Source: an uncultured Candidatus Saccharibacteria bacterium (GTDB lineage Bacteria > Patescibacteriota > UBA1384 > VFKW01). From it: 54,161 nucleotides of DNA. The notes under the pieces are model-generated. The model ran no database searches, was not told the origin of the DNA, and was given only the letters and a program-made list of their open reading frames with translations. Location: contig CAYZYR010000002.1 of the NCBI GenBank assembly GCA_964482785.1, positions 1-54,161 of the forward strand, read 5' to 3'. Positions 2,018 to 53,038 of this stretch are shown one piece after another. Each line of letters starts with the position of its first letter. Position 1 is the stretch's first letter. The translations under genes and the position numbers were made by a program.

Positions 2018-2101
2018 AAAAATATTCCTTTCTATAGAAAGTTTGTTAGCAAGATATTAGGTAAAAATATATTTACCGATAAATCTAAATACATATTAAC
2101 A

Positions 2102-2162
2102 TAAAAAAGTCCCCGAGGCAAGACCATCTGCGATGACGCAGTGTCTTGTCTCAAGGGACTTT
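2102..2162 (-). terminator. Rho-independent terminator of the GC-rich three-gene operon
   Basis: On the minus strand, AAGTCCC..CAAGAC-loop-GTCTTG..GGGACTT forms an imperfect ~17-bp stem followed by TTTTTTAT. It lies ~75 nt after the stop at 2240. Confidence 0.6.
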
Positions 2163-2239
2163 CCTTTGATCGCTCTATTCGCTCTTGGACCCTAGCAGGT
2201 CTCTGTTGAGCGTCAGCGTTGTTTGCGTGGTAATCACCC

Positions 2240-2626
2240 TTAGCAATCACTCACCCAAGCTCGTGCAAAACTGCACTTGTATCGATCTACCGAGGTGTCT
2301 TGGATGACACCTTCTCCTTCTTCCGTAATGTTGTACAGCGCCGTTACAGTCACGCCATATCCATCACGCAGGTTGGTCTTGCAAGCATTCGCAACCCGAT
2401 CAAACATGACCATGATCTGATCGCGTGTCACTCGCAATCCATAGTCTCTCGCTTTTTGCAGAGACTTCTTGATGAACTCATCTAACGTAGGTACGTATGG
2501 AGACTCGATAATGACTAGTATCATCATATTTGATCTCCTTACATAGATAGAAAGCTGCCGTCTGACGACTACCGCACCTTCACCCTCGCCCAGGGTTACG
2601 GTGCTACCTCTGCCCAGCTCACTCAT
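2240..2626 (-). CDS. Hypothetical protein (third gene of the GC-rich operon)
   Basis: ATG at 2626 has GGGGAGG 7 nt upstream. An alternative ATGATG at 2527 has AAGGAG 7 nt upstream. The track ORF start at 2695 overlaps the upstream gene and is unlikely. I recognise no family. Confidence 0.5.
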   Translation of the reverse strand: MSELGRGSTVTLGEGEGAVVVRRQLSIYVRRSNMMILVIIESPYVPTLDEFIKKSLQKARDYGLRVTRDQIMVMFDRVANACKTNLRDGYGVTVTALYNITEEGEGVIQDTSVDRYKCSFARAWVSDC

Positions 2627-2639
2627 GATGCGACCTCCC

Positions 2640-2960
2640 CTATAACGACGCTGCGACAGGTACTCGCCCAGCACCAGTCGTAGCCATAGTAGCATTGGTC
2701 CACTTGCGGACAGCCCCTCTGACCATGTTGATCAGAGTCCTCTCGTCCATCCGCCCTTCCTTAGGCAGATTGCAGCCGAGAGCATCGCCCGAAAAACGGA
2801 CTCTAAGAGGTTTTCTGCCTCCGCGCAACTCGATATAAACATCTACATTCATACCAGCTCTGTGGAACATATCGTGAACCTCTCCTGCGATATGCCCGAC
2901 GCTTACCGTCTTTGCATTTCTTGTCTTACTATTCTTCATCAGTCGCTCCTCCTTGATCAT
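2640..2960 (-). CDS. Hypothetical small protein, paralog-like to the 2957..3313 product
   Basis: ATG 2960 overlaps the upstream stop (ATGA). An alternative ATG at 2939 has AAGGAGGAG 6 nt upstream. The core FHRAGMNVDVYIELRGGRKPLRVRF..ALGCNLP...LINMVRGAVRKW aligns by eye with the upstream gene. Confidence 0.55.
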   Translation of the reverse strand: MIKEERLMKNSKTRNAKTVSVGHIAGEVHDMFHRAGMNVDVYIELRGGRKPLRVRFSGDALGCNLPKEGRMDERTLINMVRGAVRKWTNATMATTGAGRVPVAASL

Positions 2961-3313
2961 TCAGCAAATCGTGCAGTCATTGCAGAATCTTGACCAACCA
3001 CGGTCAGTCCGCGAGCTGCCACCCAAGCAGCATCCTCAAGTCGCCGCCTCTCCAGACCCTCAACTGCCAGTTTTATAACCGCAGTAATACTCTCCGGAGT
3101 TGCATCCATATAGACAGGAAGCCTCAGGTCATTAGCCGCTTTCGCATCCAACGACACCCAGACTTTTCCTCTACCATGGAAACGCTCCACCTCAATAGGC
3201 TGAAGCCCAACACGATAGAGAAAGTTGTTCACACAGCCCTCCCAGTCTGTCAATTCTCCGACAGACATCCTGCTTTCCTCAAAATCCCGTTTTAATCTTG
3301 GCACATCTTTCAC
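2957..3313 (-). CDS. Hypothetical small protein (first gene of the GC-rich operon)
   Basis: GTG start preceded by GAGGTGA. The core FLYRVGLQPIEVERFHGRGKVWVSL..ANDLRLP...ITAVIKLAVEG resembles the next gene. GC content is much higher than in the flanking rplS and rpmA. Confidence 0.55.
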   Translation of the reverse strand: MKDVPRLKRDFEESRMSVGELTDWEGCVNNFLYRVGLQPIEVERFHGRGKVWVSLDAKAANDLRLPVYMDATPESITAVIKLAVEGLERRRLEDAAWVAARGLTVVGQDSAMTARFAE

Positions 3314-3453
3314 TTTTTCACCTCTTCCATGAGATTTCCTAAGCTCTGAGCAAAAATGATTTTACCCACAGCCGTAGGCAGCATCCATTTTTGAAAAAAT
3401 AAATACTGCCTACAACCGTAGATTATTTTAAATGTTCGAAAAAATATGGCTAT

Positions 3454-3482
3454 AGAATACAGCTAATTCAAGCATTTGTCAA
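3454..3482 (-). promoter_or_regulatory. Sigma70-like promoter for the three-gene operon
   Basis: Minus strand reads TTGACA (3482..3477), a 17-nt spacer, then TATTCT (3459..3454). It lies between the rpmA stop and the hairpin at ~3370-3425. Confidence 0.4.
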
Positions 3483-3561
3483 GACCTCGATTAGTATCAA
3501 CATTCAACATAAATAAAAACGACCCCTTAAGGAACCATTTTTCTATTCAATACAATTCTAT

Positions 3562-3840
3562 TTATTCCGCATCAACATTTACAAACCGAGTCTTCTCAAG
3601 ATTGCCATTAAATTTCTTAATATGTTTAACTTCAAACTTAACTACACCGTTGCATTTAGCGTAAATCGTATCATCAACACCCATAGCAGTATTTCTTCCA
3701 GCGTAAAACTTGCTTCCACGCTGACGAATTATGATATTACCGGCTACAACTTTTTGTCCGCCAAAAAGTTTAACGCCTAAGCGCTTCGCAATCGAATCTC
3801 TACCTAACTTACTTGTACCCTTCGCTTTTGTATGGGCCAT
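3562..3840 (-). CDS. rpmA: 50S ribosomal protein L27
   Basis: [48 protein letters not shown] is canonical L27. Confidence 0.95.
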
Positions 3841-4380: not shown

Positions 4381-7300
4381 ATGTCAAATTTCATTCACTT
4401 ACACGTTCACAGTCATTATTCATTACTAGACGGATTGGGGAAAATTCCTGATCTTGTTGCCCGTGCTAAAAAATACGGCATGGATTCACTTGCTCTTACC
4501 GATCACGGCGTCATGTATGGAGCTATCGAATTTTATCAAGAATGTATTAAACAAGGCATTAAACCAATAATCGGCGTCGAAACTTACGTCGCTCCCCGGA
4601 CTATCAACGACCGTGTCCCAAAGATCGACACCACCCCATATCACCTAGTATTATTAGCAAAAAACTATCAAGGCTACGAAAATCTTCTAAAATTAATCTC
4701 CATCGCTCATCTCGACGGCTACTATTACAAACCCAGGATAGACAAGGAAATCCTCAAACAGCACAAAGAAGGTCTGATCGCTCTAAGCGCTTGTTTAGGA
4801 GGAGAAGTCGCCTCGCACGCCGGACATAGCAACAAAACAGCCGCCGAAAAATCCCTCCAAGACTACATCGACATATTCGGCAAAGAAAATTTCTATCTTG
4901 AACTCCAACATCATCCCAATCTCGAGCGTCAAAACATCGCCAACCAAATCCTTATAGAATTGGCTAGAAAGCACAATATTGGACTAGTAGCTACCAATGA
5001 TGTCCATTATATCGATAAAGGCGATGCAGAGGCTCAGGACGTCTTGCTGTGTGTCCAAACGGGCAAACTCATGACTGACATAGACCGCATGTCCATGAAA
5101 GAGGGTGGAGAATATTTAGATATCTCATTCCGCTCCCCTGAAGAAATGTCTCAAGCCTTCTCGCATGTACCAGACGCCATCGAAAACACCCAAAAAATCG
5201 CTGACCAATGTCAAATCGAAATAGAGATAGGCAAATTCCGCTTTCCCGAGTTCGCTCTGCCTGAAGGATATAATTACGAAACATACGTCAGAAAATTAAT
5301 CGACGAAAGATTGCCTCAAAAAGTCCCGACAGTTACAGAAGAAATGAAAAAACGCATTGATTACGAATTTGATGTTATCAAAGAAAAAGGCTATCTTGGC
5401 TACTTCCTAATTGTTCAGGATTTAGTCCACTGGGCCAGAGAAAGAGGTATCCCGACCAACACCAGGGGCTCTGCTGCCGGCTGTCTTGTCTCTTACGCTC
5501 TTGGTATTACCCCCTCTAAATTAAACCCATTAGACTACAACTTGCCCTTCGAAAGATTCCTAAATCCATTTCGTCCTTCCGCTCCCGATATCGATATCGA
5601 CATCGCCGACGCTGGCCGCAACGCTCTCATCGCCTACGTCTCCGAAAAATACGGTGCCGACCGTGTCGCTCAGATCTGTACCTTCGGAACCATGGCTGCC
5701 AAAGCCGCTATCCGCGACGTTACCAGAGCGCTAGGTTTTCCTTATGCCTTCGGCGATATGCTTTCCAAGCTCATCCCGACAGGTTCGCAAACCCAAGCTA
5801 TGAGCATTAAAAAGGCTCTCGACACCGCTCCCGAATTTAAAGAACAATATGACAATGACCCCAACGCCAAACGAGTCATCGACCTCGCCGTCAGACTGGA
5901 AGGTTGTGCCCGCCATGCCTCCGTCCACGCTGCCGGCGTTGTCATCGCTCCTGATGAAATCATCAAATTCACTCCTGTAATGCGCGACAACAAAGGCGAC
6001 CGCATGGTTACTCAGTATGAAATGCACGCCGTCGGAGAAGATGGCATCGGATTAATCAAAATGGACTTCTTAGGCCTAGCCAATCTGACGATCATCCAAG
6101 ACGTCTTGAGAATTATCAAAAAAACCAGAAACATCGATATAAAATTAGACGAACTAGAATTAGACGATCCCAAAACCTTCGAGCTTCTTGCCAATGCCGA
6201 AACCATCGGCGTCTTTCAGCTTGAATCAGAAGGCATGCGCAAGTATATCAAAGAACTAAAACCAACCAACATCAACGATATCATGGCCATGGTTGCCCTC
6301 TATCGTCCCGGCCCCATGAACTTCATCCCTCAGTACATCGAGCGAAAACACAATTCCTCCAAAATCCAATATCTCGATCCGCGCATGTCCAAAATTCTCG
6401 ACAAATCTCTCGGTCTGATCGTTTACCAAGACGACGTTTTAATGATTGCCATCGAACTAGCTGGATACAACTGGCAGGAAGTCGATAAATTCAGAAAAGC
6501 CATCGGTAAAAAAATAGTCAAAGAAATGGTTGCCCAAAAAGAAAAATTCTTCAAACAAATCATCGAAAGAGGCATGAAGAAGGATGTGGCCCAGGAACTC
6601 TGGAACCAAATCGAAACATTTGCCGGTTACGGATTCAACAAAGCCCATGCCGCCTCTTATGGTCTAGTCGCCTATCAGACAGCTTACCTCAAATCCCACT
6701 TCCCCTCCGAATTTATGGCCGCCTGGCTCACTTCAGAACAACACCGAGATATCGAAAAAGTCGCCTTCGCCCTCCAAGAAGCCGAAAGAATGAAAATCAA
6801 AGTCCTACCACCAGACATAAATTCTTCATTCGTCGACTTTGGCGTTATACCTGGAACATGGGAAATCAGCTACGCTCTCGCTTCCATCAAAAACGTCGGT
6901 AGAGGTGCCGCTGAAGAAATAACAGAAGAACGAAAAAATAACGGCCGATTCAAATCGCTTGAAGACTTCATCGAGAGACTAGGTCCCACAGTCATCAACA
7001 AAAAAATTCTCGAAAACCTTGCCAAAGCCGGTGCCCTCGATTCGCTCGCAGAAAGAAATTTAATAATCAATAATATGGAAGAAATCCTAAAATTTTCCGA
7101 CAGCGTCGCCAAATCAAAGCAATCTACCCAGATAAATCTTTTCGGGCTTCAAGAGCAATCTACCAAACATACCCTAAAACTCGAAGGCGCCAAACCCGCA
7201 GATAAAAAACAATGTCTCGCCTGGGAAAAAGAACTGCTCGGCATCTATCTCTCAGATCATCCATTAAAGACCATACAAAATATATTACCCAAGATTTCTA

Positions 7301-8164: not shown

Positions 8165-9628
8165 TTAAATATCAGGTCGTTCCAATCTAGTATATATTTG
8201 TTGAGAGCTATTATCTGCCGCATCGTAAGCCTCAATTACTACATACAAATACCAGCAGCAATATTCTCCTTCAGGATCAAAATAAGGTAAATAATCCGCT
8301 CGATTTATCGAAATAGGGGTATTAGTCTCTACATCACTCCTCAATATCTCAACCCACAAATCTCCTTGAATACTTACACGATAGCCTACAACTCCCACAT
8401 TATCATTTGCTGCATCCCAACTTATAGTCAGCTTTTCATTCGTTTTTGCTATCTTCGGACTGGCGTTCATAGGAAAAACCGGCGCATAATGATCCTTATC
8501 TCCTGTGCCAACGGTAAAAGGCTGTTCCCAATCCACCCAAGTTCCTGAAACATTTTTCTTAAAGTAGCTATGATTTCCTGCTTGATCAACTGCTTTAACC
8601 CTTGCTATATAATCTCCGGCCGGAATATTATTTTCTGTAGCGCTAATACCCACAAAACTAGTAGAATAATAGTTCGAATTTACCGCAACAGTTTTTAAGT
8701 CATTCCAACTGTCACTTGATTTTTTGTATTCGTAAACAAAACCGCTTATACCGCTAGCATCTTGTGCGTAAGGACCATAAAAATGCACGGTATTCTGTTC
8801 AATATCTACATAAAAATTATACTCCCATCCACTAGTCGCCCAAGTCGGCGCTTGAGTATCAGTCGAAGAAAAGTTGATAAAACTAGATACCTTTGTCGTA
8901 CTCACATTCCCTTCGGGATCATGTGCAAAAACATTAAATCTATAGCCTGTCGATGCAAAATTAATCCCCAAACTACTTAAATTCAAAAAACTATCTTTCG
9001 TGTCAGTAGAAACTCTAGTCCACGTTCCGGTTTCATCTGTTTCACTGCTCGATTGTTTGTACCATACCACATACTTAAGATTATCATAAGAATCATCTAT
9101 CGCTTTCGGCCAATAAACTATCACGTTTGTTGGCGTTCCTCCGGAACGCGTGGACTGTATAAAAGATTTATGTTCCGCTCGCCAATAAGGTATAAAATTA
9201 TTAGTTGACTTCGAGGCAAAAGCAACACCATTCTCATATCCCCGTCCAAAAAAGCTATTATCATTAAGCTTTCCCCGTATTTCATAATTATCGGCGTTTA
9301 TACACTTTATTTTAAAATACTGATCATCCCCTGTTTTCCCATTTATCTTAGGAATTTTTCCAAGCAATTCCTCAAACATATTTCCGATAGCAGAACCATC
9401 TGTTATATCCTGCAATCCCTCTTCCATCCCAGGAGGACATTTCTCCCCATTCTCTGCCATATACGAAGTCAAAGCTGTATCAAGCGACCTCAGATCAGAT
9501 TTTGTTTGCACGTCCTGCGCCTTCTGTCTTACTGACCTCATCCCAACCAAAACAATGCTGGCAAGAACGCCTATTATCGAAACAACAACCATCAGCTCTA
9601 TCAACGTAAAAGCAAGTCTTTTTCTCAT
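8165..9628 (-). CDS. Large type IV pilin-like protein with repeated Ig/FN3-like modules (putative pilus-tip or adhesin pilin)
   Basis: The N-terminus MRKRLAFTLIELMVVVSIIGVLASIVLV is a prepilin methylation-type motif with Ala at -1. The C-terminus has three modules ending in D-x-x-G/D-N-x-S (HDPEGNVS, VDQAGNHS, YDAADNSS). Confidence 0.75.
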   Translation of the reverse strand: MRKRLAFTLIELMVVVSIIGVLASIVLVGMRSVRQKAQDVQTKSDLRSLDTALTSYMAENGEKCPPGMEEGLQDITDGSAIGNMFEELLGKIPKINGKTGDDQYFKIKCINADNYEIRGKLNDNSFFGRGYENGVAFASKSTNNFIPYWRAEHKSFIQSTRSGGTPTNVIVYWPKAIDDSYDNLKYVVWYKQSSSETDETGTWTRVSTDTKDSFLNLSSLGINFASTGYRFNVFAHDPEGNVSTTKVSSFINFSSTDTQAPTWATSGWEYNFYVDIEQNTVHFYGPYAQDASGISGFVYEYKKSSDSWNDLKTVAVNSNYYSTSFVGISATENNIPAGDYIARVKAVDQAGNHSYFKKNVSGTWVDWEQPFTVGTGDKDHYAPVFPMNASPKIAKTNEKLTISWDAANDNVGVVGYRVSIQGDLWVEILRSDVETNTPISINRADYLPYFDPEGEYCCWYLYVVIEAYDAADNSSQQIYTRLERPDI

Positions 9629-14107: not shown

Positions 14108-14878
14108 TCATTCGCCATTACCATCTGTTGTATGTCGTCCCGCCCCCAGCCACGCCAGCTCAAAAATCGCCCTCTGAGTTCTAACCACCTCTGCACTCTC
14201 GATAATAACTCCCATCAGATCTTTATATGAAGCAATAAACATCTTATTTCCGAATATATTTATCTGGTTTGAAAACGGAAATTTCTCCGGATCGACCATC
14301 CTGCTCTCCCTCAACTCCGCCTTATCTCTCCCGATCAAATCAATAGAATCAGCCGAATACTCAATAATGCATCTCTGAGTAATCCCCTTTTTAACCCGTC
14401 GTGGAATATAGCCCTCGATATATTTTTCAACATATTTATTATCAACCGAAAACGAAGAATACGCCAGCGTCTCCGAACCCCGCGGCAAATCCAGCGTCTC
14501 TTCGAACATTTGTTTAATTCCATCGATCCCCTCGTAAAATCTCACCCTCGGCTTCACTGAACCTGAATTTTCAATCGACATCAGCTCCGGCAAAGCCTTC
14601 TTAACCTGGCTCAATCTAGCCTCAGCCATAGACTCAAGCCTTTTTGGACTTTGCGCCACAAAAATCGTCACATTATCCCTCGTTGCGCTATAAACTAACC
14701 CCTTCCGCGACAACTGCTCAAGGATATAATAAGTATTCGCCCGCTCTACTCCCGCCTTCTGAGCAATCGTCGAGGCTGCTTCTCCGCCCAGTTCCAAACA
14801 AGCCAAATAAACATTGGCAAACTTTCGATCCAGACCCAAATCATCCAAAATTTGATATACATTTTCATCCATTTTCAC
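14108..14878 (-). CDS. TrmB-like transcriptional regulator, paralog 1
   Basis: N-terminal wHTH (L..LGL......VYLA.LELG..TA..IA.K.G..R...Y.IL..L...GLV) plus a conserved C-terminal domain ending INIFGNK...IIES.E...TQRAIFELAW. Shared with the genes at 29628, 43769 and 53331. Confidence 0.75.
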   Translation of the reverse strand: MKMDENVYQILDDLGLDRKFANVYLACLELGGEAASTIAQKAGVERANTYYILEQLSRKGLVYSATRDNVTIFVAQSPKRLESMAEARLSQVKKALPELMSIENSGSVKPRVRFYEGIDGIKQMFEETLDLPRGSETLAYSSFSVDNKYVEKYIEGYIPRRVKKGITQRCIIEYSADSIDLIGRDKAELRESRMVDPEKFPFSNQINIFGNKMFIASYKDLMGVIIESAEVVRTQRAIFELAWLGAGRHTTDGNGE

Positions 14879-14987: not shown

Positions 14988-15016
14988 TTGACAATTAAGC
15001 TCATCCATGCTACAAT
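14988..15016 (+). promoter_or_regulatory. Consensus sigma70-like promoter of the radical SAM cassette
   Basis: TTGACA (14988..14993), 17 nt, then TACAAT (15011..15016). Confidence 0.55.
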
Positions 15017-15117: not shown

Positions 15118-16347
15118 ATGTCAATCATTGTCCAAGAAGTGACCGTCAGGACTCCGGAATATTGGAGCCACGAAAGAAAGGAGGATACTACCATAAAAAA
15201 TTCAGACAAAGCCGTTCAGCACGGTCTCGAAAGAAAAAACACCGGCAGACTTCAATCCCTTTGGATTGAACTGCCCGGCAGGTGCAATCTGGCCTGCTCC
15301 TATTGCTACGCCTGCGGCGGAGAGAAGCTCGACGAAAGCCGGCTTCTCTCATGGTCAGACTACGAGAATATTCTCGAGTCAGCCAAAGCTATGGGCGTCG
15401 ACAGCATCGGTATTCCCGGCGCTGGCGAACCGCTTTTTGGTGAGAATTATAATCTCACCATGCGCTTCCTTCAGAAGTGCAAAAATTTGGGCCTGTTCGT
15501 GACTCTGTTCACAACTGGCCAATTCATTACTCCTGAGCTCGCCCGAGATCTTTATGATCTCCCCGTTGAGATCATGCTCAAAGGCAACTCCCTGGATCCC
15601 AAAGTTCAGGACGATTTTGCTAGCAATCCGAAGCTCGACAAGAAAAGCCTTCGCCGCGGCTACGGAAAGGCTAGAAACCGCGCTATCGAAATATTGATAG
15701 CCGCCGGTTTCACCAATGAATTAGCCTGCACAAAAATGTACGGGCGTCGTTCCCGACTTGCTCTGGTCACATCTATTATGACCAGTGAGGATGATGGGCC
15801 ATCCAACTACAAAGAGATGGCCGACATCTTGCGGTTCTGCCGCCAGAGAAACATCATCTTCGACTGCGACTCCGTCTTAAAACGGGGACGCGGTGCCGAC
15901 TGCTCCCTCTGCGCTGCCGATCAGGAGATCAAGGCTAAGCTCCTTGAACTCCAACAGATCGACCGCGCAGAGTTTCCCGAGTACCCGAAGTGGGAGCTTT
16001 CACAGTCCTACGTCGGAACCGTCTGCGACCGGTACATGCACCACATGTACATCTCGCAGTACGGTGACATCCGCCCTTGTATCGGGGCGATGGATGTCGA
16101 CCTCGGAAACGTCAAGTCCAACACGCTCGAAGAAGCGTGGAATTGCGCCGAAATGCGCATCATCCGCCGCCGCCATTTCGGCGGCGTCTGCGGAACCGAC
16201 TGCAAAAACTTCGCTGAAGGCAAGTGTAATTCCTGCCTCGGACGAAGAGCAATAAATCTTACCAACGAAACCTTGCTTAAAGAAGGTTTCGTTGACACCA
16301 TCGGCTGCTGGAATAATCAGCCGATCAAATCCAACAGGGATGTTTAG
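15118..16347 (+). CDS. Radical SAM enzyme with a C-terminal SPASM/twitch-type Cys cluster (anSME- or maturase-like)
   Basis: CNLACSYCY (CxxxCxxC), GIPGAGEPL, and C-terminal C..YGDIRPC...CGTDCKNFAEGKCNSCLGR. The start is uncertain. ATG 15118 lacks an SD, while the only strong SD (AAAGGAGG, 15177..15184) is followed 8 nt later by an in-frame ATA (15193). Confidence 0.85.
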   Translation: MSIIVQEVTVRTPEYWSHERKEDTTIKNSDKAVQHGLERKNTGRLQSLWIELPGRCNLACSYCYACGGEKLDESRLLSWSDYENILESAKAMGVDSIGIPGAGEPLFGENYNLTMRFLQKCKNLGLFVTLFTTGQFITPELARDLYDLPVEIMLKGNSLDPKVQDDFASNPKLDKKSLRRGYGKARNRAIEILIAAGFTNELACTKMYGRRSRLALVTSIMTSEDDGPSNYKEMADILRFCRQRNIIFDCDSVLKRGRGADCSLCAADQEIKAKLLELQQIDRAEFPEYPKWELSQSYVGTVCDRYMHHMYISQYGDIRPCIGAMDVDLGNVKSNTLEEAWNCAEMRIIRRRHFGGVCGTDCKNFAEGKCNSCLGRRAINLTNETLLKEGFVDTIGCWNNQPIKSNRDV

Positions 16348-16370
16348 CCATAAGCATCCCTTCTTTTTTT
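16336..16370 (+). terminator. Rho-independent terminator of the radical SAM gene
   Basis: AGGGATG-12 nt-CATCCCT followed by TCTTTTTTT; the stem overlaps the TAG stop. Confidence 0.6.
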
Positions 16371-16451
16371 ACCCAACTTTAGCAACGACCCTCTCTATAC
16401 CGAGACCGCTAAAAAGCCTTTCTATCGTCACCCTGAAACGACTTTGCCGTT

Positions 16452-16478
16452 CTCGAGCCGAACTCTGTTCGGCTCGAG
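16452..16478. repeat. Perfect 12-bp inverted repeat in a GC-rich non-coding tail
   Basis: CTCGAGCCGAAC-TCT-GTTCGGCTCGAG. It lies within ~380 nt (16371..16750) that has no convincing ORF. Confidence 0.6.
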
Positions 16479-16685
16479 GATCCATTCAGAACCCAGATAT
16501 ATGTTTAACTAGATTCCAAGTCAATCCCGAAACGACAGTTTTGAAGTGCCTTTAATTAGTTTTTCATCGGTCTCATACCACCTCTTCAGACTATCGCCAC
16601 CAAGGCGCAATTCAACCACCGGTCGCATGTCGTCAGTTATCGATTGCAGGCGTCACCCAACACGTCAGATAACCGTCCAAAATAT

Positions 16686-16714
16686 TTGACAGCCATCTCG
16701 CCACATAATAAAAT
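16686..16714 (+). promoter_or_regulatory. Sigma70-like promoter of the Phd-domain gene
   Basis: TTGACA (16686..16691), 17 nt, then TAAAAT (16709..16714). AGGAGG precedes ATG 16752. Confidence 0.5.
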
Positions 16715-16751
16715 TAATCTATAATTAAAAACAAAAACTTAGGAGGGGTAA

Positions 16752-18236
16752 ATGGCTATTAGTGCTCCATTAGATAAAATCATTCCTTTAACCGACGCTC
16801 GCGACAATTTCTCAAAAATAATCGCCGACATTGAGCGCACATCAGAAGGAATGTATGTCTTAACCAAAGGCGGCAAGCCGGCTGTTGCTATTATTAATAT
16901 CAATTATCTCGAGAGACTGACCGGTAATCCAATGATCAAACAAAATGATAACCCGGAAGAAATCAAGGAACTAGACGAATTAGAGGAAAACACCTTCGGA
17001 TCATCAGATGACAACAAAGAATCAGATACCAATAAAGAAACCCAAAAACCAGATAATTCACCTACAGATAAACCATCAAACGAATCGGCAAAGCCAGAAG
17101 GAAAACCCTTAAACGAATCTCCGAAACCAACAGATAAACCTATGCCGCCAATCCAACCCTTCAAGCCAGTCATAAATAATACCCAAGCACCTACCCCAAC
17201 CACACCGCTGCCTCCGGCTGCTCCAACCAAAATTCCTACACCGCCTGCCCCGACCCCAGCTTCCGCGCCAATCCCATCAACACCAGCACCAACACCTCCC
17301 ACTCAACCAATCCCATCTTCTATTCCCGCGCCAATCCCGCCAATACCACCAAGACCACCACTTGAAACTCCAATACCAGCCCCCGCTTCATCAGCCTCAA
17401 CACCGGCGGCCCCTAACAAACCACTATCACAACCTGGCGTGTCCTCAATAAAAACCCCTCCTGCTATCGCTGCTCTCGAAAACAAACCAAGCACTACTTC
17501 TACAAACCCAACTCCTAAACCCCAACAGTCACCTGTTCCTGCACCAGTTTCACAGCCCACTCCACAGCCAACGCCAAATCCAACACCAAATCCAACACCA
17601 GCTCAGGCGCCAACTCCACCTACACTTTCATCCACCTCGACTCCATCCTCTACCCCAGTTAAGCCACCCCCTCAACCTACCAAACCTCAGCCTATTCCCA
17701 CACTACCCCCAACCACACCGCCGCCTCCGTCTGCTCCAACCCAAGTTCCTGCATCGCCTGTCCCGACCCCAGCTTCCGCGCCAATCCCACCAACACCAGC
17801 TCCTGCGTCTGTCCCACAATCCCCTAAGATTAATCCCTCATGGTTAAATCCATCTCAACAACCCAACACTCAAACCCAAAACCAACCACAAACTACTCCA
17901 CAGCCAACACCAAGCCCAGAAGCAAAACCGCAAGTCCCAACACCTCCAACTAATCCAACGCCACAGCCAGGATCTCAAACCCCCAAACCGCAACCTGCTC
18001 CACAACCGACAATACCTTCTTCAACTCCTAATTACACTCCCCAGTTCACTTCAGGTTCCGGCGCTGTGCGAAACTTAAGCATCGGAGGAACCACAACGCC
18101 TCAAACAGCAAATACACCGCCAAACTCTACTCAGCCTGCAAATACAACCCCTACTCCGACGCCCGAAACACCTCCGACGCCCGAAACACCTCAAACCCCC
18201 AACCAGCCTGCCGACGTCAAAGATATGGAAATATAA
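16752..18236 (+). CDS. Phd/YefM-type antitoxin domain fused to a ~430-aa Pro/Thr/Gln/Ser-rich low-complexity region
   Basis: The N-terminal ~58 aa (IPLTDARDNFSKIIADIERTSEGMYVLTKGGKPAVAIININYLERL) is Phd/YefM-like. The remainder consists of PTPxP-type repeats. No toxin ORF is adjacent. Confidence 0.8.
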   Translation: MAISAPLDKIIPLTDARDNFSKIIADIERTSEGMYVLTKGGKPAVAIININYLERLTGNPMIKQNDNPEEIKELDELEENTFGSSDDNKESDTNKETQKPDNSPTDKPSNESAKPEGKPLNESPKPTDKPMPPIQPFKPVINNTQAPTPTTPLPPAAPTKIPTPPAPTPASAPIPSTPAPTPPTQPIPSSIPAPIPPIPPRPPLETPIPAPASSASTPAAPNKPLSQPGVSSIKTPPAIAALENKPSTTSTNPTPKPQQSPVPAPVSQPTPQPTPNPTPNPTPAQAPTPPTLSSTSTPSSTPVKPPPQPTKPQPIPTLPPTTPPPPSAPTQVPASPVPTPASAPIPPTPAPASVPQSPKINPSWLNPSQQPNTQTQNQPQTTPQPTPSPEAKPQVPTPPTNPTPQPGSQTPKPQPAPQPTIPSSTPNYTPQFTSGSGAVRNLSIGGTTTPQTANTPPNSTQPANTTPTPTPETPPTPETPQTPNQPADVKDMEI

Positions 18237-19473: not shown

Positions 19474-19588
19474 ATCTTAACTATAACAAACAAATTCCCA
19501 AAAATCCAACAAATACTTCAAACATTTGCACTTCAAAAATAAACGTCGTACAATATTATTAATATTGCCAAACAACCCAAGGAGGATC

Positions 19589-22197: not shown

Positions 22198-22200
22198 AGA

Positions 22201-34358: not shown

Positions 34359-34387
34359 TTGTAAGATATTAAAATTTAGTGTATAAT
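34359..34387 (+). promoter_or_regulatory. Sigma70-like promoter of the rpsF-ssb-rpsR operon with a ~180-nt leader
   Basis: TTGTAA, 17 nt, then TATAAT. The leader contains a GCTTG-CCG-CAAGC hairpin. Confidence 0.4.
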
Positions 34388-34565
34388 TAATCTACTTTTC
34401 GCCAAAAAGTGTTCCAAAATTAACCAAAATATATAAATCCCTCGTGGATTTTATATTGGTGTAATTAAACACACAAAAAACATCTAAAGCATGCGGACAA
34501 ACTTAAATCGCTTGCCGCAAGCAGCAGCTCAGACAAGTAATAATCTAGATCAGATCGGAGTTTAA

Positions 34566-43768: not shown

Positions 43769-44587
43769 CTATCTCAGAAACTGCCAAAAAAGCTCAAATA
43801 TCGTCTTCTGCGTTCCAGCAAAATCTTTTTCATCAATAATCGTCGCCATCGGGCGCTGGAATGACGCTAAAAGCACTTTATCTCCGTACACAGCGCTAAA
43901 ACGTGGCAAACTAAACCCAACCGGCAAAACCCTTGTGTCCCACGGCACCTCGCCCGCATTCTCATCGCCCCTCAATTTCTCAATAGTTTTCTGTTCGACC
44001 TGCCTAACGCTGATCCTTCGCTTCTCTATCTCTCTAACATACCAGTCAAAATGATCTGGCATCCATCTTTTCCACGCCCCTATCGAACCATAAATCATTA
44101 TCGGCTTTTTCTGCAGCAAGCAATCATTCAGCGCCTCCACCAATCCCTTCGCACCATCATAAAACTGTATTTTCGGTTTCCCGCTCACCATCTCCGACAA
44201 ACCTCGTAATTGCGGGATCAATTCCTTCAGTCCTTCCTGCCGCTCTTCGATTAATTTCCTTTGTTCCGCTAATTCCTCCGCCTGACGATCAACATGACCA
44301 ATCAGTTTCTCCGGCCCTTCCGCAAAGAACTTTTTAACCTTCCCGTCGTCATTCCCAAAAGCCACAAACCCGGATTTCTCCAGCTCCTTCAAAATATCAT
44401 AAACCGTAGTCCGTTGAAGCTTAGTATTTTTCGCGATTTCACTCGCCGTCATTTCCCCATACTGTAACAACGATAAATAAACTCGCGCCTTTTTGTCGGA
44501 AAAACCCAATTTAGATAATGCGTGACTAAATGCCACATTTCCTCCCGTCGATACACCATCAACACCAAAAAATCCCAATTTAATCAT
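43769..44587 (-). CDS. TrmB-like transcriptional regulator, paralog 4
   Basis: ALSKLGFSDKKARVYLSLLQYGEMTASEIAKNTKLQRTTVYDILKELEKSGFV plus a C-terminal domain ending DFAGTQKTIFELFW. Confidence 0.75.
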   Translation of the reverse strand: MIKLGFFGVDGVSTGGNVAFSHALSKLGFSDKKARVYLSLLQYGEMTASEIAKNTKLQRTTVYDILKELEKSGFVAFGNDDGKVKKFFAEGPEKLIGHVDRQAEELAEQRKLIEERQEGLKELIPQLRGLSEMVSGKPKIQFYDGAKGLVEALNDCLLQKKPIMIYGSIGAWKRWMPDHFDWYVREIEKRRISVRQVEQKTIEKLRGDENAGEVPWDTRVLPVGFSLPRFSAVYGDKVLLASFQRPMATIIDEKDFAGTQKTIFELFWQFLR

Positions 44588-44684: not shown

Positions 44685-45020
44685 TTAATTTAACTCACCT
44701 TTTACCAACTTTTCCAAAAAAACAATATCTTTCATACAATGAGCCAAAGCCGCATTCACAATATCAGATTTACTAACCTTAATTCTTCTTTCCATCCGTA
44801 GCCTAAATTTTGCCACCTCCAAATCTTCCAGAATTTGCGGATTAAAATAAAATGTAAACTTTACAGGCTCCAATGATACAACCTCAGCCCCTTTTCTCTC
44901 GATAGTCGGTTCCTCTTTTACAACCGGTTCCAAACTCTCAGATCTAACCGGTGTCCTGCTTTTTGTGTGCGATCCAAACAACAGATCTGCTCCTGGCAAA
45001 TCAGTTTTACCTTTAGCCAT
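44685..45020 (-). CDS. Small ParA partner: disordered N-terminus plus a ribbon-helix-helix-like C-terminus (ParG/adaptor-like, replacing ParB)
   Basis: ATG 45020 has AAGGAGG 6 nt upstream and overlaps the parA 3' end by 8 nt. MAKGKTDLPGADLLFG resembles the ParB N-terminal peptide. KFTFYFNPQILEDLEVAKFRLR...SKSDIVNAALAH fits a beta-alpha-alpha RHH pattern. Confidence 0.55.
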   Translation of the reverse strand: MAKGKTDLPGADLLFGSHTKSRTPVRSESLEPVVKEEPTIERKGAEVVSLEPVKFTFYFNPQILEDLEVAKFRLRMERRIKVSKSDIVNAALAHCMKDIVFLEKLVKGELN

Positions 45021-45819
45021 TATCAACCTCCTTGGCAACCGCTCGATATTGCTCCGCCGCCTCGGAAGTCTTCGCATGCGTCAGCACAGACTCTCCGGCC
45101 ACAGTCGCATAATCAAAGCGTACTGTTTCTTTAATAACAGTGTTAAATACCTTATCTCCAAATGCCTCCCTCGCTCGCTCCAATACCTGCCGCGAATGAT
45201 GAGTTCGGTTATTATACATCGTTAATAAAATTCCTTTCAACTCAAGATTAGCGTTCATACCGCTGTCTCGAACCTTAGAAATAGTATCCATCAGTTGACT
45301 CATTCCTCTCATTGCCCAATAAGCGCACTGCAAAGGAACAATTACTCCGTCAGCCGCCACAAGCGCGTTTAATGTCAAAAGGCCCAGTGATGGCGGACAA
45401 TCAATCAAAATATAGTCAAAACGCTTCTTATGCGGTTTCAAAATATCCGTCAGCGTTTTTTCTCGATTTTCCCGGCCAAAAAGCTGGATTTCCGCCGCCG
45501 TCAGATCTAACGTCGCCGGCGCCACCATTAGCCCGGGCACGCTTGTCTTATGAAATACCTTATGCATAGAAACACTATCAAAAAGCGCGTGGTACACGCT
45601 TCTGCCCTCTATCTCATCAACATTAATTCCCAGCCCAATAGACATATTGGACTGCGGATCAAAATCAATCAACAATACGCTCTTACCACGCTCAGCTAAT
45701 GCTACTCCCAGGTTAATAGTACTGGTTGTCTTGCCAACTCCACCCTTTTGATTTGCCACCGCAAAAATCTTCGTCTCCCGGCTTTTATCTTTAAACATAT
45801 CAAACGATCGCAACACCAA
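45013..45819 (-). CDS. parA: ParA/Soj-family partition ATPase
   Basis: KIFAVANQKGGVGKTTSTINLG deviant Walker A, followed by LLIDFDPQSN. Confidence 0.9.
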   Translation of the reverse strand: MVLRSFDMFKDKSRETKIFAVANQKGGVGKTTSTINLGVALAERGKSVLLIDFDPQSNMSIGLGINVDEIEGRSVYHALFDSVSMHKVFHKTSVPGLMVAPATLDLTAAEIQLFGRENREKTLTDILKPHKKRFDYILIDCPPSLGLLTLNALVAADGVIVPLQCAYWAMRGMSQLMDTISKVRDSGMNANLELKGILLTMYNNRTHHSRQVLERAREAFGDKVFNTVIKETVRFDYATVAGESVLTHAKTSEAAEQYRAVAKEVDNG

Positions 45820-45946
45820 ACCTCCTTGTGCTAATTAGTTACGCAAACAACCTTACCTATATACAATTATTACACCATACTTAATTGCATGTCAACATTT
45901 TTATCATTAAACACTCATTATTTTATACAATAAAATATTTAAAATT

Positions 45947-45955
45947 TTATCCACA
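45947..45955 (+). promoter_or_regulatory. Perfect DnaA-box consensus 9-mer
   Basis: TTATCCACA. Weaker relatives are TTATCCAAG (46157), TTATCCAAC (46909) and ATTTCCACA (47359). Confidence 0.3.
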
Positions 45956-46006
45956 TATAAAATAATACTTTACTACAATTATATAAGTGAAAATTTTATA
46001 CTGTAT

Positions 46007-46058
46007 TACACGTAATTAATATAATTTAACCCGCAAAATATAATTATACACGTAATTA
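46007..46058. repeat. Two TACACGTAATTA 12-mers exactly 40 bp apart upstream of parA (candidate centromere/operator iterons)
   Basis: Copies at 46007..46018 and 46047..46058. The second extends into the 12-bp palindrome ACGTAATTACGT. A related TGCACGTA lies at 46177. Confidence 0.4.
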
Positions 46059-47465
46059 CGTATTAAAATTTAAATGTATAAAATTTTAATTGCTTTTAAT
46101 GTTTAATTGTAAATATGTTATACAAGTATTTATAAAAATTAAATAAAAACATACTTTTATCCAAGTAAATATTGTATGCACGTATTTTTTACTCAATTTT
46201 TTCTCAGCAAAAATTTAAACTAACAAAATTTTTCGCTCATTTAAAGCAGCTCGCGATAAACATTAAGCAAAATTAAAAAAATAAAATCGTAGACGATTTT
46301 AAAGCCTTAACAGGTTGAAAATTGAACATTACTTAATCGCTTCAATAGACAATCTGTAATCATCCATATCGCTACTGGCCACTCCATTGCCATTACAATT
46401 CGCACAAAAACATCGACTATTATTACCGCGCCAAAATAACATATGACCACATCCGGACGCCTCGCTAAAAGTCAAAAACATAACTTAATAATTTATCAAT
46501 TTCACTCTACCCAAATTCATCGAGGCAAGATCAAATCAACTAAAGTAATTTATTCGAAATTAAAATCAAAAAACCACAACAAAAATTCATCCGAAAAACA
46601 TAACGAAATACTATCTCCAAACACTTCGTCGCTAAAACCAAAAAACACAATTTACAGTACAAAAAATCTTAGACCTACACTAGATTTACAACACAAGTAT
46701 ACAATTATTATATCAAAAACATAACCAAAAATTAAAATCATCTATTATCATTTTAATACCATAAATTATTATATTTCTTAATATCAAATCAAAAAAATAC
46801 ACAAAAAAATCTCTATAGTATTTATTAATAATTAAACAAATTTATTATTAAACTTTTCAATTTTTATAGTTCAAAATAATTTAATAATATTCTGTAATAA
46901 TTTTACAATTATCCAACTAAAAACGCCTCCAAAACATAGTGCTCAATAACATCTCAGTCATGATAATATATAAAAATATTGAACAAAAAATACAAAACCA
47001 CAACTAAAAAACCATTTCAGACCTAAAAACATATGTCGAAACAAAAAAGTCAATTTTAAAACATAAATATAAAAATTGATTAAATTAATTAGACATTAAA
47101 GTACATATAAAAACGCCTCAAAGCCATCAAAACAAACACAAATAAATTGTTCAAAAATAATCAAACTAGTATTGCTTATTACCGCATTAATCTCATATTA
47201 TAACTTCATCTTAAATGGCACAGAATTATCGTAATAATATTATAAATAATTTACAAAAACTTTAAAAATGTACAATACATATTAGACATTAAAAAGCATC
47301 TGCATTAATTCAAAAAAAATTACAAGTTGTCAAAAAAGTTAAATAAATATTGAACATAATTTCCACATAAATATTCCCGTCAAAAAAACAGCAAATATCA
47401 CAATACAAGCAAAAAATATTACTTGTATCATTTTTAAAACTGCGTGACCACCCGCAACAAAACAT

Positions 47466-47506
47466 TTAAAAAAACAGGCCCTGTGCGAGCCTGCTTTTTC
47501 TTTTTT
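47466..47506 (-). terminator. Terminator after groEL
   Basis: GCAGGC-TCGCACAGG-GCCTG hairpin flanked by A/T runs on both sides. Confidence 0.5.
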
Positions 47507-49662: not shown

Positions 49663-49788
49663 TATCTACTTTGTCCGCTTATCGTCATAACGATAAAACG
49701 CTTGGTCTACACCATATTTATATCTTATAATGTTGCGGAACATTTCTTCGATATCTAGAGGAGTGTTGATTACTCATGGAAGAGATAC

Positions 49789-50204
49789 TTGAAGTTGAAA
49801 CCTGAACAACTATTCGCTTTAAGAGTAAAAGCAGTAACTGCTTTCCTTGTTGCCCTGATCGCCACCGACATCGCAATCATCTAGACATCAAATTTATGGC
49901 AGATACTAGCTGTACTTGTTCTGTTTGAGACAGCGGCCTATCTCTTGCCATTATTAACCCCAAAAACTACGGGAGAGGCACCGCAGTTTATATGCACTCT
50001 TATCGTAGGCATAAGCATTATGCCATCAAGAGTCTCAACCACCCCGCCGCCATTCTCCCCATGACAATCTGGACAATAGCAATGATTTGTTTCGAGAAGG
50101 CCATGCAAGTGTACAAGATAGTACCCCTTAGCCTAAACGAAGCCATCGAAATACCAGCCAAAAGCGAAGACAGTAGTTACTCGGTTCAAAACAAGTCAAA
50201 ATAG
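49789..50204 (+). pseudogene. Decayed small membrane-protein gene (in-frame TAG plus a frameshift)
   Basis: One frame reads KLKPEQLFALRVKAVTAFLVALIATDIAII-TAG(49882)-TSNLWQILAVLVLFETAAYLLPLL...FICTLIVGISIM...*. The hydrophobic continuation ILPMTIWTIAMICFEK lies in the frame of track ORF 49992..50204. Confidence 0.4.
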
Positions 50205-50212
50205 GGTTTCGC

Positions 50213-50428
50213 TTGTTTTCTAAGCGAGATGAGGTTCTCTGCAGAATTCTAGACAACCACCCAAGTCAAAACGGAGATACTTTTATAATCTTCGATGATT
50301 CCCCACAATATCTGTTTAAACTGCTAAACAGAAAGAATTGCTTCGATCCGGAAAACCCGTGTATAGTTGAAGCCAAAAACAACCTCATCCAGGATACTGG
50401 ATACAGGTTTGAGATCAGCTTCAGCTAA
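50213..50428 (+). CDS. Hypothetical protein (weak)
   Basis: 71-aa ORF with a TTG start and no SD. A terminator-like hairpin follows at ~50463..50500. Confidence 0.3.
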   Translation: MFSKRDEVLCRILDNHPSQNGDTFIIFDDSPQYLFKLLNRKNCFDPENPCIVEAKNNLIQDTGYRFEISFS

Positions 50429-50901
50429 TCATTTACGCTACACCCAACTCTCCATCAAGTTCGGCCAAGTGAGAAATCATCTGGCCAACACTTTTTATAT
50501 TGTATACAAGTATACTTACTTACCAACTAAACCTATAATTTTTCAATTAAAATAGCAGTGACAGCGTGAAGGGGGTTGCACGCATTGCCACTGCTAAAGG
50601 ATACAATATCAAACCCCAAATAACGTGTCAAGTCTCATTTACAATTTTTAAACCTGATTGAACTAACCCCAGCCAATTCTCAGCTATTTACAATTTACAT
50701 ACCTGATATCATAATAAAAATATCTCTAAATTATTTTTGAGCTCCTCATACCAAGGATGGGGGTTAAATAAACTGAAACGATTTTTTGAGGAGGGGAGTG
50801 CTGTCTGAAAAGACCGTTAATATAATTCGAAACGGTTCCTACACCAGCTAGTTTAAAGTACACTACTAGCAAACGAAAGCTTATTTTAGTGTTAATAAAA
50901 T

Positions 50902-52009: not shown

Positions 52010-52039
52010 AATTCTTAGCAAAAAATCCCTTATAGTCGC

Positions 52040-52067
52040 TTGACAAACAAGGCTTTTTTGTTATAAT
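52040..52067 (+). promoter_or_regulatory. Sigma70-like promoter of the 52128 cassette
   Basis: TTGACA, 16 nt, then TATAAT. Confidence 0.5.
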
Positions 52068-52127
52068 TCTAAGTTTTCTCTCAAAAAGCCCGCCTTTTAA
52101 GGGGGTTAATACAAGGAGGATAGAGAA

Positions 52128-52418
52128 TTGAGAACATTAATATTTTGTATACTGTCCTTCGCCCTGCTTACAATTTCTTACCACAAAGTCATCGCCGGCA
52201 CCTGCCAAGATCCGGCCCAAACTCAGGATCCAACCGCCTGCGCTACTCAAGCTCCATGGACGGTCATCTGTGTTCCCGCGCAAGCAGATCCGACCACCAT
52301 CGCTTCCCCCGCTCTCATCAAAGAAGTATCTCTCAAGCTGATAATCTCATCGAACGACAAGATATGGCCGGAAAACTGCGAGTTTATCGTCGTTTACCCG
52401 GTTTTGAACCCCGACTGA
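52128..52418 (+). CDS. Secreted hypothetical protein, N-terminal part up to an in-frame TGA
   Basis: TTG start 8 nt after AAGGAGG. Signal peptide RTLIFCILSFALLTISYHKVIAG. The frame stays open after TGA 52416..52418. Confidence 0.6.
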   Translation: MRTLIFCILSFALLTISYHKVIAGTCQDPAQTQDPTACATQAPWTVICVPAQADPTTIASPALIKEVSLKLIISSNDKIWPENCEFIVVYPVLNPD

Positions 52419-52419
52419 C

Positions 52420-52467
52420 AACTGACGCCGTGCAACCAACAACTTGCATGGCTGAGCATGGTCAGTT
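52420..52467 (+). other. Strong stem-loop immediately 3' of the in-frame TGA
   Basis: The outer stem pairs AACTGAC (52420..52426) with GTCAGTT (52461..52467). The inner stem pairs GCCGTGCAA (52427..52435) with TTGCATGGC (52444..52452), including one G-U pair. The loop is CCAACAAC. Confidence 0.6.
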
Positions 52468-52721
52468 ATGATCGACCCTACCTGATCGGCCCGAACATTC
52501 TCGAGCCTATCAGCAAGATCATTATCGTGACTGACAAGGGGTGTCGGTATGAGGCAAATATCTGCCCCAAGCCAGTCCAAACCGGCTCGCGTATTCTAAC
52601 CGACGAAGAAGCCTCCAGAATTGATGGCGTCTGCCGCGGTAATCCGCTACTGGAAAAGCCTGTTCCTCTAACCGGCAAAGAGACCAAAGGAGCCACCAAA
52701 GACTCCAAAAGTCTGCGGTAA
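52458..52721 (+). CDS. Same-frame continuation of the 52128 ORF (track ORF; no SD of its own)
   Basis: 52128 and 52458 are in the same frame. The sequence between the TGA and ATG 52458 is open (QLTPCNQQLAWLS). GC-rich, protein-like composition continues to 52721. Confidence 0.4.
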   Translation: MVSYDRPYLIGPNILEPISKIIIVTDKGCRYEANICPKPVQTGSRILTDEEASRIDGVCRGNPLLEKPVPLTGKETKGATKDSKSLR

Positions 52722-52786
52722 AGCCGTCAAGAAAATCATACACAATCTGTTTGTAATCGATCTACATCCACGAACACTCTCCCAAC

Positions 52787-52822
52787 AAAAGCCCTGTGAG
52801 GTTCAAACCGCACAGGGCTTTT
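52787..52822 (+). terminator. Rho-independent terminator
   Basis: AAAAGCCCTGTG-12 nt-CACAGGGCTTTT. Confidence 0.6.
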
Positions 52823-53038
52823 AAAATACAATCACTGCCTCTCTAGCAATCTCTCCGAGAACGTAAATCACACTCATAGATAAAAATAGAAATCCCTCCC
52901 TATCTCTTCTTTACTCTTACCCCCCAAGTATTCAACATTATCACAATTTTAAGCATTTTTTCAGACATTTTTTATATATTTCTTACAAAGTCAGAGCTCA
53001 ATCTCTGCGCTAATATCAAATTAAAAGAAAGGAGTCCT

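Follow-up and report, generated by a model that had tools for sequence, protein, structure and literature searches.

The stretch of DNA analysed here, contig CAYZYR010000002.1 of assembly GCA_964482785.1 (54,161 nucleotides (nt) in full, hereafter the window), is a chromosome fragment of a member of the Patescibacteria, or candidate phyla radiation (CPR), from anaerobic digesters. The same sequence is present in a 57.9-kb Logan contig of run SRR8925826, which belongs to an anaerobic-digester gene-catalogue study (PMC7842101). Its backbone carries genes typical of the CPR (DnaE, ribosomal proteins L19 and L27, the S6-SSB-S18-EF-P set, YchF, GroES/EL, TrpRS, ParA and a Ddl-Ddl fusion), a pilus/competence set composed of PilC and about eight pilins, and five or six TrmB-family regulators within 54 kb. 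Scattered among these genes are the nine blocks that are the subject of this work, b1 to b9, which an earlier note on this DNA had described as short GC-rich cassettes of foreign composition, each a transcription unit of its own. The blocks and their open reading frames (ORFs) are listed by position, with lengths in amino acids (aa), Shine-Dalgarno sequences as SD and the GC content of third codon positions as GC3.

2102-3482, minus strand: b1 unit, between rpmA (L27, 3562-3840) and rplS (L19, 1403-2017); -35 box TTGACA at 3482-3477, long hairpin with T-run at 2102-2160
2957-3313 (118 aa), 2640-2939 (99 aa) and 2240-2626 (128 aa), minus strand: three ORFan genes of b1, each preceded by an SD
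14108-14878, minus strand: TrmB regulator, divergent partner of the b2 gene; backbone-like (GC3 0.47, GC3 skew -0.69)
15118-16347, plus strand: b2 radical SAM/SPASM enzyme, 409 aa; promoter 14988-15016, terminator 16336-16361
20666-21412, minus strand: b3 HATPase_c_2-like (RsbW or anti-sigma kinase-like) protein; GC 0.43, not elevated
22169-22398, plus strand: b4 unit of about 190 nt, GC 0.539; extended -10 promoter at 22169-22197
22201-22332, plus strand: possible 43-aa ORF of b4, starting at the predicted transcription start
22369-22398: hairpin with a 13-bp stem, common to b4 and the convergent Ddl gene
25011-25466, plus strand: b5a ORFan, 151 aa; promoter 24947-24975, terminator at about 25489-25516, unit 24947-25516
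25716-26306, minus strand: b5b secreted PEP-CTERM-domain protein, 188-196 aa; GC 0.52
30554-31401: b6 divergent gene pair
30554-30805, minus strand: b6 ORF of about 83 aa with a weak Cas2 match (PADLOC, E = 1e-4, 20.9 bits)
30938-31345, plus strand: b6b ORFan, 135 aa; terminator 31378-31401
32214-33192, plus strand: b7 unit; promoter 32214-32242, terminator 33157-33190
32286-32714, plus strand: b7 membrane protein, 142 aa
From 32754, plus strand: b7 signal-peptide ORF, broken by an in-frame TGA at 32805-32807
32861-33130, plus strand: b7 Cys-containing ORF, 89 aa, out of frame with the signal-peptide ORF
49740-50560, plus strand: b8 decayed membrane-protein gene; in-frame TAG at 49882-49884 followed by a TGA and a frameshift
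50213-50428, plus strand: b8 ORF, 71 aa
52040-52822, plus strand: b9 unit; perfect promoter TTGACA-16-TATAAT with TG at 52040-52067, SD, terminator 52791-52822
52128-52721, plus strand: b9 secreted Cys-rich ORF, 197 codons, with a single in-frame TGA at 52416-52418

The products of the blocks had been described as non-housekeeping, and the family searches bear this out, most of them being ORFans. Searches of the cassette proteins against Pfam, NCBIfam, PHROGs and PADLOC returned only the two domains of the b2 enzyme (Radical_SAM, 40.5 bits with a cut-off of 29.5; SPASM, 32.2 bits with a cut-off of 21.5), the PEP-CTERM domain of b5b (TIGR02595, 18.6 bits against a cut-off of 16), a HATPase_c_2 match in b3 that stays below threshold (24.1 bits, cut-off 27.4), the weak Cas2-like match in b6 and one weak PHROG match to a regulator. 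Despite the Cas2-like match, the window contains no CRISPR array or other cas gene. The b1 proteins match nothing in Pfam, NCBIfam, PHROGs, PADLOC, IMG/VR or phages, and b5a has no relative in IMG/VR. Clusters built at 90% identity restrict the cassette proteins other than b5b to this organism, the cluster of b5a holding this organism alone; b5a has a GC of only 0.43 and is convergent with b5b. Paralogy of b1a and b1b was considered and rejected (pairwise E = 0.19, not significant), and the single-sequence AlphaFold model of b1c was unusable, with a predicted local distance difference test score of 40. As for the borders, the end of b2 previously given as 16750 adds about 390 nt of non-coding DNA beyond 16361.

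Matches to TTGACA-type promoters lie at the starts of b1 (3482, minus strand), b2 (14988), b4 (22169), b5 (24947, TGGACA), b7 (32214) and b9 (52040), the last a 12/12 match with TG, and terminators with A-tract, hairpin and T-tract close b1, b2, b4, b5a, b6b, b7 and b9. At the level of patterns, the earlier claim of a promoter and a terminator at most blocks is therefore confirmed. The further idea that native-looking promoters are a telling sign has to be given up, because the sigma-70 consensus is a generic one that housekeeping genes carry just as well. Indeed, equally good promoter matches precede L27 (4034), TrmB genes (14937, 29537, 54111), GroES (49662), ParA (45895) and an antitoxin-like gene (16686), terminators are likewise found at GroEL, YchF/SOD (superoxide dismutase) and other backbone genes, and overall the number of promoter-like matches exceeds expectation (56-58 per segment against 35-41). 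Hence, the blocks are plausibly self-contained transcription units that use the normal signals of the genome.

Where no convincing ORF is seen, in b4 most of all and possibly in the tail of b2 (16362-16750), the block might alternatively be a structured non-coding RNA, a class typically GC-richer than an AT-rich genome. In this regard, b4 combines a strong promoter with a predicted transcript of about 190 nt and 54% GC, whose fold z-score is -3.8. This score is dominated by the terminator hairpin, however, a 43-codon ORF lies at the predicted transcription start, and neither Pfam nor Rfam, even at E <= 5, gave a match to b4. Over the whole window no Rfam family was found at the gathering cut-off or at E <= 5 except for one chance match to ar14, on which ground the large blocks were rejected as known structured RNAs; these larger blocks contain SD-preceded ORFs. 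We consider RNA genes a very improbable explanation of the GC-rich blocks, while b4 itself could encode either a small protein or a small RNA.

Strand composition of backbone and blocks

The dominant feature of the window, absent from the earlier note, is the extreme G/C strand disparity of its backbone. The whole window contains 17472 A, 14568 C, 14279 T and 7842 G, so that its plus strand has 14.5% G and 26.9% C (GC skew -0.30), together with an excess of A over T (AT skew +0.10). The GC skew is negative in every 400-nt subwindow and its sign never switches within the window. In the backbone, the plus strand has 13.5% G and 27% C, and the GC skew of third codon positions, expressed on the plus strand, is about -0.6 (-0.5 to -0.8) for genes of either orientation. 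Trp codons make up 0.57% of the codons in plus-strand genes against 1.22% in minus-strand genes; being thus halved, they indicate that the bias extends to the composition of the proteins. Between ParA (45013-45819) and the GroEL terminator lies a 1.65-kb non-coding stretch (45820-47470) with a GC of about 21-30% and a strong skew. Since non-coding DNA falls to about 21% GC, the mutational equilibrium is AT-rich and the blocks lie far from it.

A G/C strand disparity that is monotonic over the whole chromosome and independent of gene strand has been described for the CPR Microgenomates order UBA1400 (Kadnikov et al. 2020, PMC7143001), in which Ch65 has 14.97% G and 29.83% C. In both cases one strand holds about 15% G against 26-30% C whatever the orientation of the genes and, as a disparity of the same size has been published, the backbone trait is already known. 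The likeness is one of composition, observed over only 54 kb here and over a whole chromosome there. In addition, the excess of A over T in the window is unreported for Ch65.

Against this background, the GC of the blocks is 0.484 (b1), 0.500 (b2), 0.430 (b3), 0.539 (b4), 0.460 (b5), 0.426 (b6), 0.480 (b7), 0.409 (b8) and 0.487 (b9), compared with 0.403 in the rest of the window. Recounting the two 60-nt lines cited in the earlier note gave its values exactly, 39/60 G+C for 2581-2640 and 18/60 for 1201-1260. An empirical P was calculated as the fraction of all same-length non-block windows with a GC equal to or higher than that of the block. It is 0.02 for b1, 0 for b2, 0.013 for b4, 0.047 for b7 and 0.037 for b9, marginal for b5 (0.09), only the PEP-CTERM half of which is GC-rich, and ordinary for b3 (0.27), b6 (0.30) and b8 (0.46). 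In line with these values, an unbiased scan with a threshold of GC >= 0.49 recovers b1, b2, b4, b5b, b7 and b9. The same scan also recovers five backbone segments, namely DnaE 5513-5980, a Pro/Thr-rich gene (17164-18140), SSB, EF-P and TrpRS. The description of about nine GC-rich blocks is hence correct for the six units recovered and not for b3, b6 and b8, and GC-richness is not specific to the cassettes.

The blocks are better distinguished by strand composition than by GC. On the plus strand, G is 0.193 in the blocks against 0.135 in the backbone, whereas C is nearly the same (0.274 against 0.268). Because C is equal and only G differs, the blocks are places where strand-specific G depletion is about half developed, and they appear GC-rich mainly through retained G. 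For b7, the probability of a plus-strand G content at or above the observed one is 0; b6 shows a weak skew (P 0.03). At third codon positions, GC3 is 0.51 in cassette ORFs against 0.42 in backbone genes (p=1.5e-4), and the median GC3 skew on the plus strand is -0.30 against -0.605 (p=5e-7). This difference holds for plus-strand genes alone (-0.33 against -0.65, p=9e-4) and for minus-strand genes alone (-0.245 against -0.585, p=8e-4). By GC3 skew, b3 (-0.29), b6 and b8 also deviate, although b3 is compositionally near-native and is set apart as an exception. Deviating composition, as expected of genomic islets, is therefore found for the cassettes as a class, in agreement with the earlier claim, and by GC alone only for the six units recovered by the scan. 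In a skewed genome, GC-rich patches should be read as missing G depletion and not as raised GC.

The same mosaic is found in a relative. The closest YchF among 5.8 billion proteins searched is 75% identical, and locus L076 (Logan SRR21362460, 1-21104), the nearest relative by this protein, shows the same two classes of composition: seven genes, among them YchF, TrmBs and a methyltransferase, with GC < 0.47 and a median GC3 skew of -0.53, and 18 mostly ORFan genes with GC >= 0.47 and a median GC3 skew of -0.175. In view of the two-class composition of L076, the mosaic is a property of the lineage. Within its 21 kb, L076 also has six TrmB genes, which lie interspersed among mostly ORFan genes of high GC (0.49-0.57) and weak skew, and there the GC-rich class is the majority.

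Conservation, decay and origin of the blocks

Given the metagenomic origin of the window and the composition shifts near the block borders, GC-rich fragments of other organisms could have been joined chimerically during assembly or binning. Five strain-level contigs from SRR27197510, SRR29243440, SRR29243441 and SRR8925716, found by exact-protein look-up, align to the window without gaps over 20.5 kb at 99.3-100% identity and include b1, b6, b7, b8 and b9 with their borders. The junctions recur in assemblies made independently from four other runs, which excludes a chimeric origin of these five blocks and settles in their favour the artefact question raised previously. The three b1 genes are called identically in contigs L085-L087, b6 is present and identical in L093, and b8 and b9 are present in L090 and L091. 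Moreover, the skew of the blocks is negative, which is the sign of the host, and their borders fall in normal promoter/terminator spacers. An artefact is thus extremely unlikely. The strain contigs differ from the window by 59 single-nucleotide polymorphisms, 55 of them transitions, which are not enriched in the blocks and are unpolarised, there being no outgroup.

More distant loci bear on b1 and b2. In L072, from another CPR bacterium, L27, L19 and UPF0102 are contiguous, with a spacer of 77 nt between L27 and L19; in the window, this triplet is split by b1, which is absent at the L27-L19 junction of L072. No cassette ORF other than the radical SAM gene has a homologue in the more than 75 Patescibacteria loci that were fetched.

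The radical SAM gene of b2 (GC 0.52, GC3 0.63) behaves differently. Its product has homologues of 60-79% identity in both Patescibacteria and DPANN archaea, and a metagenome scan with the protein gave five true relatives. The divergent TrmB-radical SAM pair is kept in five related Patescibacteria loci (L072 and L078-L081). In each of them the radical SAM gene exceeds its flanks in GC (0.45-0.555 against 0.38-0.43), and its GC3 lies at 0.62-0.71, the GC of the hosts being 38-43%. Between the window and L072, identity is 79% for the radical SAM protein and 69% for TrmB, compared with 46% for DnaE, 52% for L19 and 60% for L27. The synteny of these five loci, in distant relatives, runs counter to the idea that b2 is a foreign insertion: judged from these comparisons, b2 is a conserved module whose GC-richness appears to be intrinsic to the gene or renewed by repeated replacement, and not an accessory cassette. 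Repeated replacement between CPR and DPANN lineages could lie behind its high GC3 in every host. A caution follows from this gene: judged by atypical GC alone, conserved genes are misclassified as foreign. In terms of function, b2 resembles radical SAM/SPASM maturases of ribosomally synthesized and post-translationally modified peptides or of cofactors in having both domains and an adjacent dedicated regulator. It differs from them in that no NCBIfam equivalog was assigned (the best reaching at most 55 bits where cut-offs are 300-650, 500 for the best) and no conserved small ORF that could encode a precursor peptide was identified beside the gene.

Decay is evident in b7, b8 and b9. The in-frame stops and frameshifts reported in several blocks are confirmed for these three; b1, by contrast, consists of three SD-preceded ORFs and is not frameshifted. 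All in-frame stops of plus-strand cassette ORFs (4/4) are TGA or TAG, while 16 of the 20 terminal stops of plus-strand genes are TAA (Fisher p=0.0066). As TGA and TAG are each one G-to-A step from TGG, the decay would follow the direction of the genome's bias, and the in-frame stops in b7, b8 and b9 may have arisen from TGG (Trp) codons. An alternative code, with TGA read as Gly or Trp, was considered and rejected: TGA is the ordinary stop of seven backbone genes, which makes recoding unlikely, and a TAG is among the in-frame stops.

As regards donors, the secreted PEP-CTERM protein of b5b is the one cassette product for which the search for homologues was exhaustive. It has about 10 homologue clusters at 28-36% identity, all of them secreted proteins of about 185 aa with a PEP-CTERM tail; the 54-kb window contains no exosortase. 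Of two homologue neighbourhoods, one holds AckA-HtpX-PlsX-transglutaminase and the other an AcrB-type RND (resistance-nodulation-division) pump, gene sets that we take to be unusual in CPR and characteristic of diderm bacteria. Because these contexts do not look CPR-like, the comparison suggests a cross-phylum origin of b5b.

Together, these findings lead us to lean towards the view that most blocks (b1, perhaps b4, b5a and b5b, b6, b7, b8 and b9) are horizontally acquired islets, partly ameliorated and partly decaying. According to this model, the resident genes would have been driven to an extreme strand-specific composition poor in G on the plus strand, and accessory units of one to three genes, with their own sigma-70-type promoter and intrinsic terminator, would occupy intergenic spacers. 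The islets would have entered GC-richer and more balanced in G/C, by uptake of foreign DNA, for instance via the type IV pilus/competence apparatus whose genes lie in the window, and by illegitimate or homology-facilitated recombination into spacers, with no element-encoded transposition or integration. Such pili have been proposed to take up DNA (PMC7143001), and by this analogy pilus-mediated uptake is a plausible entry route. Since entry, the islets may have ameliorated only about half-way toward the G-poor equilibrium of the host, and those not under selection may have been inactivated by the same G-to-A pressure, TGG turning into TGA or TAG in the plus-strand ORFs of b7, b8 and b9. The direction and timing of transfer, the donors, the mode of entry and the origin of the stops from Trp codons are what we infer in this model; the composition, the signals, the reproducibility of the sequence, the break in synteny at b1, the conservation of b2 and the PEP-CTERM domain are observed.

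The main rival to acquired islets is gene-specific compositional constraint: the blocks would be long-resident, lineage-specific genes whose GC3 and skew are held by selection on codon usage, mRNA structure or expression, or by transcription-coupled effects. Several observations weigh on its side and against acquisition. The radical SAM gene is GC-rich in 5/5 other hosts, syntenic with a TrmB gene that is itself backbone-like, so that composition alone is no proof of import. Conserved segments of EF-P, SSB, TrpRS and DnaE are GC-elevated, and the GC3 skew of ribosomal protein genes and GroEL is weaker than in the rest of the backbone (-0.17 to -0.38). Taken singly, no block has a significant dinucleotide signature, and promoters and terminators are identified by pattern matching only. 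The blocks are kept in every strain-level contig, with no presence/absence polymorphism at 99.3-100% identity; the relatives are too diverged or rearranged to score synteny for b3 to b9 (YchF at most 75%, Ddl at most 62%; L076, L077); and no donor was identified for any ORFan. On the other hand, b7, b8 and b9 carry in-frame stops or frameshifts and, being broken, cannot have their composition held by selection. The GC-raised housekeeping genes keep a strong skew (EF-P -0.66, TrpRS -0.65), unlike the cassettes, b1 is absent from the junction conserved in L072, and the PEP-CTERM homologues have contexts that are not CPR-like. On this evidence we regard constraint on resident genes as unlikely, and acquisition as the reading to retain for these blocks.

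Acquired DNA may also have arrived in larger pieces, in which case the blocks would be the last remnants of islands, prophages or plasmid integrations whose integrases and att sites were lost in genome reduction. In this regard, pseudogenes are frequent in the window (b7 to b9, and an FMN (flavin mononucleotide) reductase gene split into three ORFs), the long runs of GC-rich, low-skew genes in L076 resemble full islands, and a tyrosine recombinase (19526-20551) adjoins b3. The architecture also equals that of phage morons, defined as extra genes between adjacent conserved genes with their own promoter and terminator and a different GC (Hendrix and colleagues; PMC2920897). Like morons, the blocks have their own signals, a GC unlike that of their neighbours and a position between conserved genes. 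Every block, however, is flanked by chromosomal housekeeping genes (ribosomal proteins, Ddl, YchF, TrpRS, GroES/EL), without phage-family matches, and for lack of a phage context the blocks are not morons. Six cassette proteins have no relatives in IMG/VR, GenBank phages or PLSDB plasmids, b9 has neither a phage nor an IMG/VR relative, and the single weak regulator match is the only one to PHROGs. As for the recombinase, its domains are arranged as in XerC/D and its composition is that of the backbone. We therefore judge the remnant explanation quite unlikely.

What classically marks a genomic island or integrative element was not found: the window contains no transposase, no recombinase other than the XerC/D-like one and no tRNA, and the block borders show no flanking, common or att-like repeats. 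The absence of mobility genes and border repeats reported earlier is thus upheld, with the reservation that the XerC/D-like recombinase adjoins b3. Like acquired genomic islets, the blocks are atypical in composition, carry accessory genes or ORFans and show partial amelioration and pseudogenisation, and b1 is inserted between conserved genes. They differ in being very small (0.2-1.4 kb) single transcription units without a tRNA target, integrase or direct repeats, and in that their signal is mainly a weaker G/C strand disparity and not GC% itself. With integron cassettes they have in common that they are small, mostly ORFan single-gene units of foreign composition; unlike these, they are dispersed over 50 kb with their own promoters, and neither an attC-like common repeat nor intI is found. 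Scattered acquired islets that ameliorate and decay are well-established biology and no new kind of mobile element. To call the layout non-standard was therefore an overstatement, as gene acquisition is known to leave scattered single-gene islets that lack mobility genes, and the architecture is moron-like (PMC2920897).

A wider reading, which we put forward tentatively and hold to be rather doubtful, is that CPR lineages under one-directional, chromosome-wide G-to-A pressure continuously take up, and then erase, single promoter-to-terminator units whose sources would be unrelated bacteria, possibly their hosts. Little is documented about gene gain in the tiny, streamlined genomes of CPR bacteria. 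If continuous uptake were true, no element-encoded recombinase would be involved, competence pili and illegitimate recombination into spacers being the likely means; the residual third-position skew would serve as a clock of residence time, and a flux of gain and decay would be measurable in an ultra-small genome. The extreme strand disparity exposes newcomers that would in principle be datable, even single ORFans that carry no signature of mobility, and the approach would be applicable across such genomes.

TrmB paralogues and other genes of the window

The TrmB-family genes of the window and the remaining features mentioned below are as follows.

14108-14878: TrmB-family gene, clear (the partner of b2)
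29628-30365: TrmB-family gene, clear
43769-44587: TrmB-family gene, clear
53331-54068: TrmB-family gene, clear
33264-33911: TrmB-like helix-turn-helix protein
16752-18236, plus strand: protein of 494 aa with an N-terminal Phd/YefM antitoxin domain (32 bits)
22456-24816, minus strand: tandem fusion of two D-Ala-D-Ala ligase units, 786 aa
31517-32143, minus strand: split NADPH-dependent FMN reductase, three overlapping ORFs of 61, 52 and 135 aa

A TrmB-family neighbour stands directly beside b2, b6, b7 and b9, and only 43769-44587 has no adjoining cassette. With six TrmB-like genes in the window, chance suffices for this adjacency by a rough hand estimate, and it was rejected as a meaningful pattern. 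The expansion of TrmB paralogues is also striking in the relatives.

The Ddl-Ddl fusion has full-length relatives in 70 species genomes at 47-62% identity (185,579 GTDB species genomes searched), mostly of Patescibacteria and some labelled Opitutales/Verrucomicrobia. As these 70 loci in GTDB species representatives have no neighbouring gene in common with the window, they were of no use for scoring the presence or absence of blocks.

In the Phd/YefM-domain protein, the N-terminal domain is followed by about 400 residues of low complexity rich in Pro, Thr, Ala and Ser. Its gene includes a 97-nt direct repeat (17194-17290 and 17707-17803, 91% identical) and is the GC-richest stretch of the backbone (0.55), because of its CCN/ACN codons.

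The low-GC spacer at 45.8-47.5 kb contains one perfect DnaA box (45947-45955), and the skew runs across it without a switch. It was considered as a candidate oriC and rejected, as the window has 15 DnaA-box matches against 16 expected. If 45820-47470 were an origin, the absent skew switch would fit the idea of unidirectional replication (PMC7143001).

The FMN reductase gene is a frameshifted pseudogene of backbone-like composition, and contig L093, assembled independently, carries it unchanged. No ORF of at least 60 aa is found in two spacers of 0.65-1 kb (28653-29627 and 33912-34565), which are probably further decayed genes; in the second, positions 34181-34293 resemble the 5' ends of pilin genes (compare 9507-9619).

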